A stretch of 4,514 nucleotides of DNA. Source: a virus. Lineage: Duplodnaviria > Heunggongvirae > Uroviricota > Caudoviricetes. The notes under the pieces are model-generated. The model had not been told where the DNA came from. It saw only the letters and a list, made by a program, of their open reading frames with translations, and did no database searches. Below are positions 1-4,514 of the stretch, piece by piece; the stretch's first letter is position 1, and every line of letters begins with the position of its first letter. Position numbers and translations under genes: made by a program. The stretch is taken from the IMG/VR virus record IMGVR_UViG_2734482548_000006; one strand, given 5' to 3'.

Positions 1-47
1 AATATCTCCCCGGCAGCCTTCAGGGAAAAATATCATCAGATGGCTGC

Positions 48-401
48 TTAAAAAAAGAACAAATGGTAGTGTCCGCTATTGCCAGTACACCTCAATTGCT
101 CTGCGGCTTCGCTCAGAGCTGGCGTATGTTCCCGGCCTACTGATTCACACAGGTAATCAACGAAACCGGACACCAGTTTTCGTTCGCGAGGCGTGATCGC
201 CCCACCGACCGGAGTCCAGTAATCGAAACCCAGTTGCAGGAGTTTGAAAAAACGCTTGTGGAATGCGTAGTTACACACACGCTTAAAGTCTGCGTGTATC
301 CACTCACCTATTTTGATTTGATGCAGAAAATCGCAACTCTCCGGCGTCGCCGGGAGAAGTAATCCGGAAGAGGTTTGTTTGACCAGTTGTATATGTGCCA
401 T
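48..401 (-). CDS. Hypothetical prophage protein, about 117 aa (MAHIQLVKQ...HYHLFFF)
   Basis: Minus-strand ORF with stop TAA at 48-50. ATG at 399-401 is preceded by GGAG about 7 nt upstream; the listed ORF extends to a TTG at 443, which is a less likely start. Follows the upstream 95-aa gene by 38 bp. No family recognised. Confidence 0.55.
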   Translation of the reverse strand: MAHIQLVKQTSSGLLLPATPESCDFLHQIKIGEWIHADFKRVCNYAFHKRFFKLLQLGFDYWTPVGGAITPRERKLVSGFVDYLCESVGREHTPALSEAAEQLRCTGNSGHYHLFFF

Positions 402-439
402 CGGCTTTCTCCGGTGGCACGGTGTTACACAGCAGGAGT

Positions 440-727
440 TCAATCCTGCTCAAGATTGTAGATGAGTTTATTCTTCAGCAAAAGCAGAAAACCAGCCTTA
501 AAACCAATCTCTTTCAAAACCCGTAATGATGTGACAAATTCGTCCTCACGCAAAATAAAACCGTCCGTCAGAAGTCCATTACAAAAATAAAATAACACAG
601 CACCGCTCTTCCTTTGTTGAGATTGCAAACATCTAATGCGGCAATGGCTGACAATCGCTCCATTCTCAACGCGCACAGCATAGAGGCCATTTTCACTAAA
701 AATTTCACGCAATTCTTCGATTTTCAT
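440..727 (-). CDS. Hypothetical prophage protein, 95 aa
   Basis: Minus-strand ORF with ATG at 725-727 and GGAAGG about 9 nt upstream; stop TGA at 440-442. AT-rich coding region. No family recognised. Confidence 0.55.
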   Translation of the reverse strand: MKIEELREIFSENGLYAVRVENGAIVSHCRIRCLQSQQRKSGAVLFYFCNGLLTDGFILREDEFVTSLRVLKEIGFKAGFLLLLKNKLIYNLEQD

Positions 728-844
728 CTTCAGAATCCTTCCAGATAAATAGCTCTCCCCTGTTCGGGGTCCATCCCTCTTCTCCCTGCGCGCTACTTAA
801 GTGAGTCGATTCTATCTGCGAAGGTGCGCGAATCAAATTCACCG

Positions 845-901
845 GAAATAAACAACAAAAAACCCGCCGAAACGCTGAGAGATCACAGCGATGGGCGGGT
901 T
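845..901 (-). terminator. Rho-independent terminator at the 3' end of the hok transcript
   Basis: Plus-strand aacccgcc (861-868) pairs with ggcgggtt (894-901), with an inner cgctg/cagcg stem (873-877 / 886-890). On the minus-strand RNA the stem is followed by a U-rich tract (complement of 845-860 gaaataaacaacaaaaaa). On the plus strand no T-tract follows, so it is unidirectional. Confidence 0.65.
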
Positions 902-907
902 AAGTGC

Positions 908-920
908 GGGTGCGTTGAGG
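908..920 (-). promoter_or_regulatory. fbi-like 3' element of hok mRNA, complementary to the 5' tac element
   Basis: Plus 908-920 gggtgcgttgagg is nearly identical to the reverse complement of plus 1289-1302 (agcctcaagcaccc), so the mRNA 3' region can pair with its 5' end with a 1-nt bulge. This is the fold-back architecture known from hok mRNAs. A 9-bp perfect hairpin (941-949 gggcgggga / 960-968 tccccgccc) lies between the hok stop and this element. Confidence 0.5.
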
Positions 921-976
921 ATGCCTGACACATCAGAGGTGGGCGGGGATGGGATCAGCTCCCCGCCCGGTCACTC

Positions 977-1132
977 TTACTTCCTGGATTCGTAGTCTAC
1001 GAAGACAGCGACCTCCGTCTGGCCGGTTCGGATTCGTACCTCACAGAGGTCTTTCCTCGTTACCAGTGCCGTCACTATGACGGTTAAACAGATGACGATC
1101 AGGGCGATTAACATCGCCTTTTGCTGCTTCAT
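977..1132 (-). CDS. hok: Hok/Gef family type I toxin, 51 aa (MKQQKAMLIALIVICLTVIVTALVTRKDLCEVRIRTGQTEVAVFVDYESRK)
   Basis: ATG at 1130-1132 with AAGGAG 9 nt upstream; stop at 977-979. Single transmembrane helix followed by the conserved RKDLCEV...TGQTEVAVF periplasmic tail, very close to E. coli HokC/HokD as recalled. Confidence 0.9.
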   Translation of the reverse strand: MKQQKAMLIALIVICLTVIVTALVTRKDLCEVRIRTGQTEVAVFVDYESRK

Positions 1133-1189
1133 AGCCTGCTTCTCCTTGCCTTTCGGCATGTAAGAGGCTAACCTACATGTGCAAAGCAT
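977..1189 (-). CDS. mok: Mok-like overlapping reading frame (70 aa), an in-frame N-terminal extension of hok
   Basis: ATG at 1187-1189 opens a frame that runs in-frame through hok (MLCTCRLASYMPKGKEKQA + Hok). Same layout and size as the mokC/hokC pair (69/50 aa) in E. coli. Confidence 0.55.
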   Translation of the reverse strand: MLCTCRLASYMPKGKEKQAMKQQKAMLIALIVICLTVIVTALVTRKDLCEVRIRTGQTEVAVFVDYESRK

Positions 1190-1262
1190 GAAATTGGCCT
1201 CAGATTAATGTTAAGCGTCTTGCCGGACGCGTAATGTTAACTGGGGCTTTTCTCTATCTGCC
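1181..1262 (+). ncRNA. sok: Putative Sok-like antisense RNA (position approximate)
   Basis: Family expectation: Hok loci carry a short antisense RNA opposite the mok leader. A candidate plus-strand promoter is TTGCCT (1146-1151), 17 nt spacer, TAACCT (1169-1174), and there is a small hairpin gcgtc/gacgc (1215-1230). No clean terminator was found, so the boundaries are a guess. Confidence 0.25.
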
Positions 1263-1288
1263 TTTTGGTGTTCATGCCTGAAGCAGAT

Positions 1289-1338
1289 AGCCTCAAGCAC
1301 CCGCAGTCATTCTACTTACCTCGCCAATATGAAATCAA
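1289..1338 (-). promoter_or_regulatory. hok/mok promoter and mRNA 5' tac element
   Basis: On the minus strand: -35 TTGATT (plus 1333-1338), 18 nt spacer, -10 TAGAAT (plus 1309-1314), predicted start near 1302. The transcript would begin GGGUGCUUGAGGCU (complement of 1289-1302), resembling the 5' end of plasmid R1 hok mRNA. Confidence 0.5.
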
Positions 1339-1359
1339 TCAGAAAGGTGCCCCATAAAA

Positions 1360-2046
1360 TCACTCCTTCTCTTCTTTACCGTAGTGGAGTTGACCAATTT
1401 TGATAAGAGGGCGTCCCTGAGATTTGCGGTGTAGATTGGTATCGCGCAGAGAATACACACAGCCACAATATTCCTGCTGATAGAATTTTTCGCGCTTGCT
1501 GATTTCAATCATACGGGACGAGCCGCCCTGCTTGCGCCAGTTATAATCCCAGTACACCATGCCCGGATAATGCGCGACGGCTCGCCGCCCACAGTCGTTA
1601 ACCTGCTGCATATTTTTCCAGCGTGAAATGCCCAGTGAACTGCTGATCACACTGAAACCATTTTCAGCGGCGTACAGCGCTGTCCGCTCAAAACGCATGT
1701 CAAAACACATGGTGCAACGGATCCCTCGTTCGGGCTCCCATTCCATTCCTTTGGCTCGTTCAAACCAGTTGTCTGTGTCGTAATCAGCATCAATAAACGG
1801 CACGCCGTGTTGTTCAGCAAAGCGAATATTCTCATCCTTACGAATTAAATACTCTTTCTGAGGATGAATGTTCGGGTTGTAGAAAAAGATGGTGTAGTCG
1901 ATTCCCGAGGCCTGAAGCGCCTCCATCACCTCACCGGAACATGGAGCACAGCAAGAGTGCAGTAGTAGTTTGTTTGCCCCGTTTGGGAGCTCCAATTTGG
2001 GCCGTTTGAAATCAGCAACTGTCATAAATATGTTTATTGGGGTCAT
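1360..2046 (-). CDS. queH: QueH-like protein (DUF208 family, epoxyqueuosine reductase homolog), 228 aa
   Basis: ORF with ATG at 2044-2046 (alternative ATG at 2025) and stop TGA at 1360-1362. Carries the motifs I associate with DUF208/QueH: [12 protein letters not shown] near the N-terminus, [15 protein letters not shown] and EYCGCVYS. No strong SD at either start. Confidence 0.75.
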
Positions 2047-2193
2047 AAAAATATCAAAGAGTGTAGCATTAGAACGGGGCTATCGGAAACAGATGTGTGA
2101 CTGCTCCCCGCCCTTTCGGGTGGTCTCCTGATGATTTGAGGGTGCAGAAATCCCTCCGGTTAAGGATTAAATTTTTAACAGTGCTAAATTTAA

Positions 2194-2550
2194 TTATTCA
2201 GTTCTGGATTTTGTCGCCCTGCGTATCCGCGCTTTCGCGTTACGCTCAATCTGTATCAGCTTTTCTATATTTCTCCGCCTTTCCTGTTCCTCCTGGCGCA
2301 ATAGCCTTACATCATCTGCCAGTCTGGTTTCTCTTTTTGCCACAGAGAGCATCCAGTCAAACGGCTCCACAACCGCACCGCAGATTTTACAGCGGACCTG
2401 ACGCTCTTTTTCGTCAACCCGTACAGAGGCGTGATGGCAATATGGTCTTTCCGATGGCTCATAAAGAAAATTAACCTGATTACGAGGGTCATCCTCTTTT
2501 ACCGGAAATAAAACGATATTGCTTAACTCATCTTCTGGTTTTATTTCCAT
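2194..2550 (-). CDS. Hypothetical small protein, 118 aa: Cys/His-rich Zn-ribbon-like segment followed by a charged coiled-coil-like tail
   Basis: ATG at 2548-2550 is preceded by AAGGAGAGGAGC. The ORF is open further to an ATG at 2605-2607, which abuts the upstream stop as TGAATG, so the start is ambiguous. Contains PYCHHASVRV...RCKICG, then RLLRQEEQERRRNIEKLIQIERNAKARIRR. Confidence 0.7.
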   Translation of the reverse strand: MEIKPEDELSNIVLFPVKEDDPRNQVNFLYEPSERPYCHHASVRVDEKERQVRCKICGAVVEPFDWMLSVAKRETRLADDVRLLRQEEQERRRNIEKLIQIERNAKARIRRATKSRTE

Positions 2551-2607
2551 GCTCCTCTCCTTTGATGCGAATGCCAGCGGTAATTGAAGCCTGATAGCTA
2601 ATTTCAT

Positions 2608-3030
2608 TCACAGTATCGCCTCCTGAAAATTACCCTGATAGAAAGCCAGTACACGCTGCATAGCTTCGCTCTTCCGGCACTCGCGACAGATTATATTCAG
2701 GCGCCTGTCGTAGCGGCGTATTTCTCCGTCAGGTAATGACCAGATAAGGTCCGGATCAACAACAACCGGTTTCCTCACCTTTACTCTCGAGAGTTTTTTG
2801 CGGGCGCTTTGCCAGTCCTTGCGAGCCTGTTCAGACGGGAATAAGCCGTAGCCAGAATTATATACATCACCACTTGCGACCAGTTCTATGCATAAGCGAC
2901 CGACAGACGCACGACTGATACCTGTTTCATCTGACAACTGCCGAATCGTGACCCGACCGTCCTGATGCACGAGTTCCACAATTCGCGTCTTCAGTTCTTC
3001 CCGCTGTTCGGGAGTAAAAGGTTTCGCCAT
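2608..3030 (-). CDS. ren: Ren-like protein, 140 aa, with predicted HTH/winged-helix N-terminal region
   Basis: ATG at 3028-3030 with AGGAGG 4 nt upstream; stop TGA at 2608-2610. C-terminus NIICRECRKSEAMQRVLAFY resembles lambda Ren (NLVFKECRQSAAMKRVLAVY, recalled from memory). Sits immediately after the P-like gene, as ren does in lambda. Confidence 0.7.
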   Translation of the reverse strand: MAKPFTPEQREELKTRIVELVHQDGRVTIRQLSDETGISRASVGRLCIELVASGDVYNSGYGLFPSEQARKDWQSARKKLSRVKVRKPVVVDPDLIWSLPDGEIRRYDRRLNIICRECRKSEAMQRVLAFYQGNFQEAIL

Positions 3031-3044
3031 AAATCCTCCTGAAA

Positions 3045-3727
3045 CTACTTAACAACCCTCGAATGGCTAACATTCGGACGCCAGCTCTCCCAGTTAAAAT
3101 TCACCCAGCGCCCGNNNNNNNNNNNNNNNNNNNNNNNNNNNNNNNNNNNNNNNNNNNNNNNNNNNNNNNNNNNNNNNNNNNNNNNNNNNNNNNNNNNNNN
3201 NNNNNNNNNNNNNNNNNNNNNNNNNNNNNNNNNNNNNNNNNNNNNNNNNNNNNNNNNNNNNNNNNNNNNNNNNNNNNNNNNNNNNNNNNNNNNNNNNNNN
3301 NNNNNNNNNNNNNNNNNNNNNNNNNNNNNNNNNNNNNNNNNNNNNNNNNNNNNNNNNNNNNNNNGATAGCTGCCGCTAAGTGATTCTTCCCGGTACCAGG
3401 TTTTCCGCTGAACGCAAAATTTGTACACCCGGTCATCAGTTCATCGGCGATGGATTTCGCCTGGCTTAACGCGTATCGCTGGCCGTCGTTCTGCACCTGG
3501 TAATTCGCAAACGAGCATTTACGGTGCAACGGCTGGATGCCTGAGCGATTCAGAATTTTTTCCACCCGCAACTGGCGATTCAGGCGGTTGATCTCCTCGC
3601 TACGTTTCTGGCCTTCAGCAAGTTGCCACTCGCGCCACTCCGCTACCGTTCTGAATGGGGCGGTTACATGTGGCGGGGTCAGTCGGCGGATGCGTTCCAG
3701 AACGCCGCCTGTCGCAATATTTTTCAT
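3045..3727 (-). CDS. DnaC-like replicative helicase loader (lambda P functional analog), interrupted by an assembly gap
   Basis: ATG at 3725-3727. The N-terminal 121 aa align closely with E. coli DnaC (MKNI..., SGIQPLHRKCSFANY, Walker A GKPGTGKNHLAAAI). After the N-run, the C-terminus WVNFNWESWRP...VVK with stop at 3045-3047 matches the DnaC C-terminus (WVIFNWDSYRSRV). The frame does not carry across the 250-N gap, so the gap length is nominal. Confidence 0.85.
3115..3364. other. Assembly/scaffold gap (250 N)
   Basis: Continuous run of N from 3115 to 3364, inside the DnaC-like gene. Confidence 0.99.
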
Positions 3728-3733
3728 GGTCCG

Positions 3734-4410
3734 TTACCCCCTGAAGCCTGGCGGGATCGCACTGTCCGGCAACGAGACGGTGTTAACCTGTCGGAGCAAC
3801 GTCTCAGGCCGAACACCTTTCGGCGCGAACAGGCCCTGGTATTCATTGGCGATGCTGTGTCGAATCACCTGCTCAGGTGTAAAACCCTGCTGACGGAATT
3901 TTTCCAGTTCCCGTATCGCCCCGTTAGCGCCCTGCTCCGTTCGAATCGGTTTTCGCAATGCCTGTCTGAACCGGACCCACTCATGCCAGAGTGTTTCCGG
4001 CAACCAATCGGGCAGCTCAATAGCCTCCGGCTCGAATTTTTTAGACGCTCGTTTTTGGCGAGGGGGAGATCAGTATTTAGATCTTCCTCTTCCTCTTCCT
4101 CTGGTAACGCTTTTTGATCCGTTTGTGTAACGCTGGCAGCGTTACCTTTTCGTTTCAGTTCGCGTATTTTTGTTACTCGCTCGTTTGTAACCGCCCGTTT
4201 TTTTTAGAGCTTTTTCCGTTATGACGTTCAAAGTTAGGTAGAGAAAGCCCTCCGTCATTTTCGACCAGCCATCCAACCTGAATTAACGCATCAGCAAAAC
4301 CAGACATAAAAGTGATGCGATCTATTGCACTTTTTGTAACGCCGCGAGCGTTACAATCTGCATTACCGTCTATCATTTGTTGATCCGCCCATGCCCAGAA
4401 GCGAATAACC
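3734..4410 (-). pseudogene. Phage replication initiator with DnaT-like C-terminal domain (lambda O functional analog): 5'-truncated by IS and split across three frames
   Basis: The C-terminal frame (4003-3734) ends NTVSLPDSAIPPGFRG, matching the E. coli DnaT C-terminus (NTVSEPDSQIPPGFRG, recalled), and stops 7 nt before the DnaC-like start, as in dnaT-dnaC. The N-terminal piece (frame of ORF 4173..4436) hits a stop at 4173. A third frame is open and protein-like between about 4203 and 4040 (KKRAVTNERVTKIRELKRKGNAASVTQTDQKALPEEEEEEDLNTDLPLAKNERLK). Restoring one base in the A8 run (plus T8 at 4198-4205) and one in a run at about 4037-4066 joins all three. Confidence 0.6.
4082..4102. repeat. 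Hexanucleotide tandem repeat (TCTTCC)x3.5, encoding an EEEEEE acidic linker in the replication protein
   Basis: Plus 4082-4102 is tcttcc tcttcc tcttcc tct; in the middle minus-strand frame it reads P-E-E-E-E-E-E-D. Confidence 0.5.
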
Positions 4411-4514
4411 TGAGGTAGCCTGAGTTTAACGGACACTCCTTCCTGAAATAGAATGGCATCAGAAGGAGCTAATAATGAGCAGAAAAACCCAACGTTACTC
4501 TAAAGAGTTCAAAG
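4411..4514 (+). mobile_element. Left end of an IS3-family insertion sequence (possibly IS600-like), continuing beyond the window
   Basis: Plus 4411 begins TGAGGTAGCCTGAGTTTAACGGACAC. This shares the terminal TGA and the GGACAC at positions 21-26 with the IS3 left inverted repeat as recalled. An SD (AGGAG, 4464-4468) and the ATG at 4475 lie about 65 bp inside the end, the usual position of orfA in IS3-family elements. Confidence 0.6.
4475..4514 (+). CDS. IS3-family transposase OrfA, N-terminal fragment (MSRKTQRYSKEFK...)
   Basis: ATG at 4475 with AGGAG 6 nt upstream. The translation MSRKTQRYSKEFK has the YS.EFK motif typical of IS3-family OrfA HTH proteins. Truncated by the window edge. Confidence 0.65.
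   Translation, partial: MSRKTQRYSKEFK

Follow-up and report, generated by a model that had tools for sequence, protein, structure and literature searches.

What is a gene for the last step of queuosine synthesis doing in the cargo region of a lambdoid prophage, if the bacteria that carry it already possess an enzyme for the same step? The question is raised by a stretch of 4,514 nucleotides (nt), here called the window, from the IMG/VR virus record IMGVR_UViG_2734482548_000006, assigned to the Caudoviricetes, in which an open reading frame (ORF) for a QueH-like protein lies close to a hok toxin gene. Epoxyqueuosine (oQ), the last intermediate on the way to queuosine (Q), accumulates when vitamin B12 is missing; Escherichia coli has no de novo synthesis of this vitamin, and in Salmonella and Klebsiella its synthesis is confined to anaerobic conditions. 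The cobalamin need of the last step was reportedly described by Frey et al. in 1988, as the title of their work has it. The queuosine pathway was worked out in E. coli (PMC5372724; PMC9508795), in which the final reaction, the reduction of epoxyqueuosine on the tRNA, is performed by the cobalamin-dependent enzyme QueG (PMC4646009; PMC5175355). QueH is a non-orthologous alternative to QueG that depends on iron and not on a cobamide (PMC6461909; PMC9508795). We think it somewhat probable that the queH gene of the window is a mobile, selected, and cobalamin-independent backup for epoxyqueuosine reduction. This reading starts from the family membership of the protein, its intact ligand set and its fold, and from the purifying selection on the gene, the mobility of its module, and its constant co-occurrence with queG.

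The ORF runs uninterrupted on the minus strand between window positions 1360 and 2046 and encodes 228 amino acids (aa) when counted from its first ATG. The first-pass annotation of this DNA had given the same frame and length, leaving the strand unsaid, and had recognized QueH by four motifs, all of which can be located in the protein (HSCCAPCS at aa 30–37, YNPNIHP at 56–62, RCTMC at 110–114, and YCGCVYS at 193–199). That identification was right, as the profile search it had proposed demonstrates: the Pfam profile PF02677 (QueH/DUF208/COG1636) is matched from position 1 to 174 of 175 by aa 27–201, with 220.6 bits against a cutoff of 23.5 and an E-value of 1.9e-65. Since the profile is matched over nearly its full length, the sequence at 1360–2046 is not that of a chance ORF. 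The NCBIfam profiles gave no match to the 228-aa protein at E ≤ 0.01, and in RefSeq the protein bears the name "epoxyqueuosine reductase QueH". Exactly the same protein is recorded on at least 1000 contigs, from Shigella sonnei Ss046, other Shigella, and E. coli.

Among solved structures, the sole sequence match is QueH from Thermotoga maritima (PDB 7lc5; E 5e-22, aa 27–203, about 30% identity over 175 residues), for which the titles of PDB entries record C9S and D13N mutants and a complex with queuosine. The ligand set of the family, CCxx(C/D)...CxxC...CxC, is complete in the prophage protein, in which C32, C33, C36, C111, C114, C194, and C196 are aligned with C9, C10, D13, C87, C90, C169, and C171 of the T. 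maritima enzyme. In the work of Li et al. from 2021, the ligand residues of QueH are reported to bind a [4Fe-4S] cluster and an iron next to it. For a broader comparison, the protein was aligned with 62 diverse full-length representatives of the family, 35–74% identical, taken from an exhaustive HMMER search. C32, C33, C111, C114, C194, and C196 are unchanged in 62 of 62. At position 36, 59 of the representatives have Cys and the other 3 have Asp, which is the state of T. maritima (D13). The prophage QueH thus has the majority ligand set, and the Cys ligands expected by the first-pass annotation are kept with respect to both the solved enzyme and the family at large.

The fold leads to the same enzyme. 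An AlphaFold2 (AF2) model was obtained with moderate quality (predicted local distance difference test, pLDDT, 71; predicted template modeling score, pTM, 0.71), and its five best Foldseek matches in the PDB are all T. maritima QueH, with E-values of 4e-10 to 7e-9 and template modeling (TM) scores on the target of 0.71–0.73, followed by the much weaker matches LarE and TtuA. The modeled fold is that of the solved QueH enzyme. The prophage and T. maritima proteins (PDB 7LC5, 7LC7, and 9DEU for the latter; Li et al. 2021, cited in PMC13443448) therefore have in common the Pfam family, the fold, and six exactly aligned Cys residues, whereas they differ in Asp13 of T. maritima against Cys36 here. 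Moreover, the T. maritima enzyme, of 192 aa, is devoid of the 19-residue N-terminal lead of the prophage QueH and of a C-terminal tail of about 25 residues (NxHRKxQGRxxIKxGxxYYG), which is a feature of prophage and gammaproteobacterial QueH.

The position of the start codon deserves some attention, as it bears on how the gene has been annotated in phages. The real start of queH is probably Met8 rather than Met1, because the call of the Prokaryotic Genome Annotation Pipeline (PGAP) at window 2025 and the starts of the homologs agree on it: in Enterobacter and Scandinavium the start aligns with Met8, and there is no ATG where Met1 would be. With this start, the queH coding sequence (CDS) occupies 1360..2025 on the minus strand and yields 221 aa, the in-frame ATG at 2046 giving the 228-aa version. 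The matching family in PHROGs is phrog_3217 ("unknown function", 188 positions), which covers only aa 41–228 of the product. Its profile begins at an internal Met41 (window 1924–1926), the ATG of which is preceded by GGTGAGGTG, and the CCAPC motif is thus excluded. Such a beginning points to mis-called starts in the underlying phage annotations, and calls at internal ATGs evidently hide the QueH identity in many phage annotations by dropping the CCAPC ligand motif.

The closest relatives of the prophage protein are found on chromosomes and plasmids of related bacteria. It is 78–92% identical to the chromosomal QueH of many Enterobacterales and other Gammaproteobacteria, in which the C-terminal tail is conserved too. 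Bearers of a chromosomal queH include Erwinia, Providencia, Proteus, Photorhabdus, Serratia, and Enterobacter, among others, in settings that vary from one genus to another: purL-queH-glrK in Erwinia, tmcA/DUF441-queH in Providencia, and benE-queH in Photorhabdus. Two relatives at 90% identity have LysR and acetyltransferase genes as neighbors, and in Enterobacter hormaechei, E. quasihormaechei, Scandinavium, and Serratia marcescens the neighbors are metabolic or regulatory genes. Phage genes are the neighbors only around the queH copies of Escherichia, Shigella, and Escherichia albertii. Plasmids are a second important location, with 305 plasmid records carrying queH homologs (99 from Klebsiella and 68 from Escherichia). 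The QueH of Klebsiella IncF/IncR plasmids (e.g., pHNGS471-3) is 90–93% identical and is encoded among insertion sequence (IS) elements, and that of the conjugative Salmonella IncFII plasmid pCFSAN024441_02 is 97% identical and is encoded beside IS481 and fec genes. The occurrence of queH on the chromosomes of many Enterobacterales, together with its carriage by plasmids, makes it a local mobile accessory gene and not an exotic import. As a side observation, iron-uptake genes are found near both plasmid copies, namely, the ferric citrate (fec) transport genes on the Salmonella plasmid and a TonB-family fragment near the Klebsiella plasmid queH.

Isolated phages contribute one clear case. The temperate phage HannyBb (45 kb) carries queH at the same place as the window, annotated as hypothetical. 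The other protein matches in the phage collection are not credible as isolated queH phages. They comprise two records of 328–378 kb named "Acinetobacter phage MD-2021a", 18 unannotated "Bacteriophage sp." contigs from the human gut, and Staphylococcus and Listeria "phage" records, with 31–79% identity, and these phage-labeled records may be bacterial DNA, mis-binned contigs, or real virus-borne QueH.

The comparison of the DNA in these different contexts reveals how the gene travels. Homology to the window extends over 1354–2096 in phage HannyBb, 1353–2089 in E. hormaechei, 1356–2073 in Scandinavium, 1356–2096 in the Salmonella IncFII plasmid, and 1353–2089 in a Klebsiella IncFII/IncR plasmid. 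The alignment with an E. albertii prophage covers 1150–2096, with the upstream border at 2096, and takes in hok too. Beyond these borders, the sequences that flank queH are unrelated. As the borders are nearly identical in each context, queH constitutes a discrete mobile module of about 740 bp (1354..2096, minus strand), which consists of the gene together with some 70 bp of upstream and some 5 bp of downstream sequence.

The short upstream portion of the module contains a candidate extended −10 element, TGCTACACT, located at 2060..2068 on the minus strand (read from 2068 to 2060), 34 nt upstream of the Met8 ATG. The motif TGCTACA(C/A)T is kept at 31–35 nt from the ATG in nearly all the copies with at least 87% aa identity, be they in prophages, plasmids, or chromosomes, and it is found in some Erwinia as well; the sequence around it diverges. 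The exceptions are two Enterobacter copies with TGCTACCCT or TGCTACTCT, and the copies of Enterobacter sp. ECC-175 and S. marcescens, which are devoid of the motif. More distant Enterobacterales present CTACACT-, CTAAACT-, or GCTATATT-like motifs at comparable distances. This conserved motif would be the native promoter of queH, travelling with the gene. The chromosomal and plasmid copies of Enterobacteriaceae (Enterobacter, Scandinavium, Kluyvera, Klebsiella plasmids, and the Salmonella IncFII plasmid) resemble the prophage copy in sequence (86–97% aa identity), length, start, TGCTACA(C/A)T motif, and module borders, whereas their neighbors are metabolic or regulatory genes, IS elements, or iron-uptake genes instead of phage genes.

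Other transcription signals are scarce around the gene. No terminator-like site was found in 900–2700, neither before nor after queH. The 86 nt around its stop codon fold no better than shuffled sequences (z −0.41), and neither does the 168-nt upstream region (z −1.09), in which there is no structured leader; a search for regulatory RNAs or riboswitches with Rfam at E ≤ 0.1 gave only sok. The orientation of queH is that of the early-right genes, and for this reason read-through into queH is expected after induction of a prophage.

How widespread the gene is, and whether it has company of the same function, can be evaluated in E. coli. DNA of queH is present in 995 of the 5426 complete genomes, with a median of one copy, and that of queG in 5426 of 5426, so that each queH-positive E. 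coli has both genes at the DNA level. The check for a host queG suggested in the first-pass annotation is thereby answered for the species. The accompanying statement that enterobacteria normally use QueG is correct for E. coli, yet it cannot be extended to the Enterobacterales, many of which have the chromosomal queH, 78–92% identical, described above. QueG and QueH have the same predicted reaction, from oQ-tRNA to Q-tRNA, with unrelated folds and cofactors, QueG being the one that requires B12 (PMC4646009); QueG belongs to the core of the species, whereas queH is accessory (995/5426). A genome with the two reductases side by side is already on record, that of Staphylococcus aureus (PMC13443448), in which a differing expression of QueG and QueH has been attributed to cofactor supply (PMC13443448). 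Both genes are reported there within the gene set of the bacterium, with no mention of a link to mobile elements, whereas in E. coli QueH arrives by prophage or plasmid.

The prophage copies are also well preserved. From 84 that were fetched, 83 are intact and none is disrupted, the remaining one having been set aside solely because its DNA alignment ended 2 nt short of the 3′ end. The 20 distinct alleles among them have a mean of 0.0031 nonsynonymous substitutions per site (dN) and 0.105 synonymous ones (dS), with dS values of up to 0.31. The resulting ratio of about 0.03 shows strong purifying selection on queH within the mobile pool.

The setting of the gene is best appreciated in E. coli FDAARGOS_944, in which queH is 100% identical and window 95–3114 is 99.9% identical to part of an intact lambdoid prophage located beside ybhA/modC. 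The order of genes in this prophage is integrase, cI/cro, ydaT, O-like, dnaC-like ydaV, DUF977, phrog_1621, queH, hokD, orf, DUF1367 (NinB-like), DUF1364, and DUF1133, followed by four tRNAs, lysis genes, and structural genes. The tRNAs (17102–17412) are those for Ile, Arg, Thr, and Gly and none of the Q-bearing ones for Asp, Asn, His, and Tyr; hence, queH is not paired with phage-encoded substrates. Among the 50 annotated genes of this prophage there is no other queuosine or deazaguanine gene.

In the window, an untranslated spacer of 147 bp (2047–2193) separates queH from the upstream genes, just as the first-pass annotation had described. The first of these genes (2194..2550, minus strand; ORF to 2607, PGAP start at 2550) encodes a zinc-ribbon-like small protein of unknown function, phrog_1621 (PHROG E 5e-56), with a weak match to Pfam Zn_Ribbon_TF (E 2e-4) that falls below the cutoff. 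It is followed by a DUF977/Ren-like gene (2608..3030, minus strand; Pfam DUF977 E 1e-33, phrog_142), which forms the usual upstream edge of the cargo slot. In a survey of 80 IMG/VR loci, 60 have DUF977 on the upstream side of queH, at a distance of about 150 bp, and 64 have hok within 400 bp downstream. Only 14 of the 80 have the phrog_1621 gene in between DUF977 and queH; as most queH prophages lack it, it does not belong to the queH module. The survey bears out the earlier view of queH as cargo of a nin-like region next to hok, as related prophages mostly carry it between DUF977 and hok. Sister prophages, such as that of E. coli DETEC-E223, have other contents in this slot: DUF7167, small hypothetical genes, an S-adenosylmethionine-dependent methyltransferase, a 3′-5′ exonuclease, DUF4014, or, in some, nothing at all. 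With contents that differ this much, the slot is a hypervariable site for cargo within the nin region.

Downstream of queH comes a hok/sok type I toxin-antitoxin module (895..1357, minus strand), with the hok CDS at 977–1132 (Pfam HOK_GEF, E 1e-22), a mok-like ORF at 977–1189, and sok at 1127–1302 (Rfam RF01794, 117 bits, full-length match). A promoter-like site, TTGATT-18-TAGAAT, is read from 1338 to 1309 on the minus strand and starts 22 nt past the queH stop; it is the sole minus-strand promoter-like site of the region and stands at the position expected for the hok promoter. The Hok/Gef match, sok, and this site agree with the former description of a hok toxin and its promoter directly downstream of queH. 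The block 895–1357 is present alone in many E. coli genomes and is thus a separately mobile piece that abuts the queH module. Between hok and the NinB-like gene there is also a 95-aa ORF on the minus strand (440–727; phrog_340, E 6e-20, unknown function), which is conserved in both FDAARGOS_944 and HannyBb, with 69% identity in the latter.

The arrangement had also been called moron-like, and this can be accepted in part. The presence or absence of queH between conserved genes and its conserved candidate promoter speak in favor of the term, but the gene has no terminator of its own. As in lambdoid morons and nin-region cargo (e.g., hok/sok), we are dealing with a single optional gene in a variable slot with its own candidate promoter. 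Besides the missing terminator, the difference is in the product, which is a housekeeping-type tRNA-modification enzyme instead of a surface, toxin, or exclusion factor.

The prophage of the window has suffered much more than its queH. Rather than an intact prophage, the window contains a piece of 4.3 kb that is bounded by IS600 sequence. At one side, the 3′ end of an IS600 (1..94, plus strand; 100% match to annotated IS600 transposase elements) cuts the NinB-like DUF1367 gene at base 95, and, at the other, the 5′ end of a second IS600 (about 4411..4514, plus strand), in the same orientation, is inserted in the O-like replication gene. The window is identical to part of the IMG/VR contig UViG_2671180821_000008 (L094), which has full IS600 copies at 6308–7573 and 11952–13217, in direct orientation, and a third, partial one near 3925–4637. 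The prophage continues collinearly past the right-hand IS600, L094 4637–6309 corresponding to 24792–23120 of the FDAARGOS_944 prophage, which makes this IS a simple insertion and the layout a result of IS scrambling. Past the other IS600, the collinearity breaks off and the integrase region follows. A composite IS600 transposon carrying queH was considered as well, and it is ruled out because the same prophage, and not foreign sequence, resumes beyond the right-hand IS.

With respect to FDAARGOS_944, the O-like gene has two indels totaling 12 nt and is frameshifted, its ORF being split into 3734–4003 and 4173–4436. A replication gene that is frameshifted, split, and truncated by IS600 leaves the prophage very probably unable to replicate. 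It is a dead, IS-scrambled remnant of the type typical of Shigella, and its bacterium is probably a Shigella. The queH gene is still intact inside, in the midst of truncated or frameshifted phage genes, which counts for a selected function. Regarding the rest of the remnant, the 250 N at window 3115–3364, within the DnaC-like ydaV, stand for 314 bp of real sequence in L094 (8619–8932), so the masking alters the length; ydaV is a complete 248-aa ORF in L094 (8256–9002) and appears as 208 aa in the window.

What could such a gene do for its carrier? In our proposal, its product would be a functional QueH, i.e., an iron-sulfur, cobalamin-independent reductase that turns oQ into Q in four tRNAs (those for Asp, Asn, His, and Tyr), at their position 34. 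The module of about 740 bp would have been captured from the chromosome or a plasmid of an Enterobacteriaceae, together with its own extended −10 promoter, and now occupies the variable slot for cargo that lambdoid prophages have between the ren-like gene and hok/sok. Expression could take place from this promoter in lysogens, with read-through of the early-right operon adding to it after induction. A host with the B12-needing QueG as its only other oQ reductase would then gain a B12-independent completion of queuosine. This would make queH a trait of lysogenic conversion or of accessory fitness, with MetE alongside MetH as a parallel. The catalysis itself, the conversion of oQ34-tRNA into Q34-tRNA with no need for cobalamin, is a predicted one, supported by the identity of 78–92% to chromosomal queH. 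Use of the candidate promoter, and independence from B12 as the benefit under selection, are presumably part of the same picture.

Several points weigh against this proposal and should be kept in mind. The main weakness is that the literature examined gave no physiological difference or phenotype between oQ-tRNA and Q-tRNA. The candidate promoter consists of a conserved motif with a weak −35 and no Shine-Dalgarno sequence before Met8, so that a short leader without such a sequence is predicted from the TGCTACACT site. This site was not called by a consensus promoter scan in which a match to the −35 was required; the scan gave two sites against 2.0 expected by chance, one being the hok-side site and the other a site on the plus strand within the ORF. 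The AF2 model, of moderate quality, has low confidence at about residues 188–200, which include the CxC ligands. Finally, the loci used for the dN/dS ratio were picked as the best tblastn matches, and the sample is therefore biased.

The best surviving alternative, which we nevertheless consider unlikely, is that queH serves the phage. It would be transcribed with the early-right genes (O-P-ren-nin) after induction, complete Q on the host tRNAs, and thereby tune the decoding of NAU/NAC codons in the late genes. Its co-orientation with the early-right genes, with no terminator in between, would suit this role, and so would the viable isolated temperate phage HannyBb with queH at the same place. 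Yet the codons give no support for it: the NAU fraction is 0.54 in the prophage genes and 0.57 in a set of 14 host genes, and codons decoded by Q-bearing tRNAs are about equally dense in both. The gene also remains intact and under purifying selection in replication-dead remnants and in plasmids, where there is no lytic cycle, and it retains the promoter motif of its chromosomal relatives.

Even less probable, in our opinion, is that queH is a neutral passenger, that is, a chromosomal fragment brought by illegitimate recombination into the mosaic nin region, which hitch-hikes with prophages or hok/sok and has no function in E. coli. A gene without function would hardly present a dN/dS ratio near 0.03 while dS reaches 0.31, and no disrupted copy among 84 fetched (83 confirmed intact), nor survive in a remnant whose neighboring genes are truncated or frameshifted. 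Plasmids of Klebsiella, Salmonella, and E. coli have, moreover, acquired the module independently and without hok. These observations have to be set against the constant presence of queG in the host, which makes the activity formally redundant, against the nature of the slot, a mixing zone filled with unrelated small genes in sister prophages, and against the proximity of hok (at most 400 bp away in 64 of the 80 loci).

Recruitment of QueH to another substrate (7-deazaguanine bases in the DNA of phage or host, a different epoxide, or a part in phage exclusion or counter-defense like that of other cargo in the slot) is very improbable: the neighbors are exclusion- or toxin-type cargo (Ren-like DUF977, hok/sok), and deazaguanine chemistry on DNA is established for phages (PMC6884629), but the annotation of the FDAARGOS_944 prophage contains no DpdA/TGT-like transglycosylase and no FolE, QueD, QueE, or QueC, the protein shows no divergence at active-site positions and has 86–92% identity to the ordinary QueH of chromosomes, and Hutinet et al. 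treat QueA, QueG, and QueH as tRNA-specific (PMC6884629). The role in 7-deazaguanine chemistry on which the first-pass annotation had speculated is thus left unsupported, with no partner genes among the 50 annotated in that prophage. The likeness to the Dpd-type DNA modification of phages (DpdA plus preQ0 genes; PMC6884629) is limited to the carriage of queuosine/deazaguanine metabolism by a phage, as the genes that define it are absent from the FDAARGOS_944 prophage and QueH belongs to a distinct, tRNA-directed branch.

The enzyme family, its chemistry, its structure, and the database name QueH are already known, and what is new is the type of carrier. In the viruses analyzed by Hutinet et al. 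in 2019 no homologs of QueA, QueG, or QueH were present (PMC6884629), and among the papers searched on QueH or epoxyqueuosine reductase combined with phage or prophage we found no description of a phage- or plasmid-borne QueH. Given that family, chemistry, and annotation are established, what is to be gained lies in ecology and physiology and not in mechanism. Going beyond the backup function, we would tentatively put forward a wider possibility, to which we give clearly less credit: that queH is a widespread mobile "cofactor-independence" gene, spread via lambdoid prophages and IncF-type plasmids into QueG-bearing Enterobacteriaceae, where it may shift oQ to Q when B12 is scarce or its uptake is lost (e.g., in BtuB-deficient escapers of BtuB-dependent phages or colicins) and may measurably affect translation, fitness, or virulence. 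In that case, queH would also be the first example of a phage carrying a gene from the tRNA-specific branch of queuosine synthesis.

Queuosine has been linked to NAU/NAC decoding, biofilm formation, virulence, and metal homeostasis (PMC10570037, PMC9508795). If the prophage and plasmid enzymes are active, about one in five E. coli strains, Shigella, and many Klebsiella and Salmonella plasmids would have an acquired, B12-independent way of completing queuosine. A tRNA-modification enzyme would thereby join the traits of lysogenic conversion and the accessory traits of plasmids, and the impression left by the 2019 phage survey, that viruses are devoid of tRNA-specific Q genes, would be corrected. 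It would also mean that oQ/Q ratios determined with E. coli K-12 in B12-free media are not transferable to queH-positive isolates.

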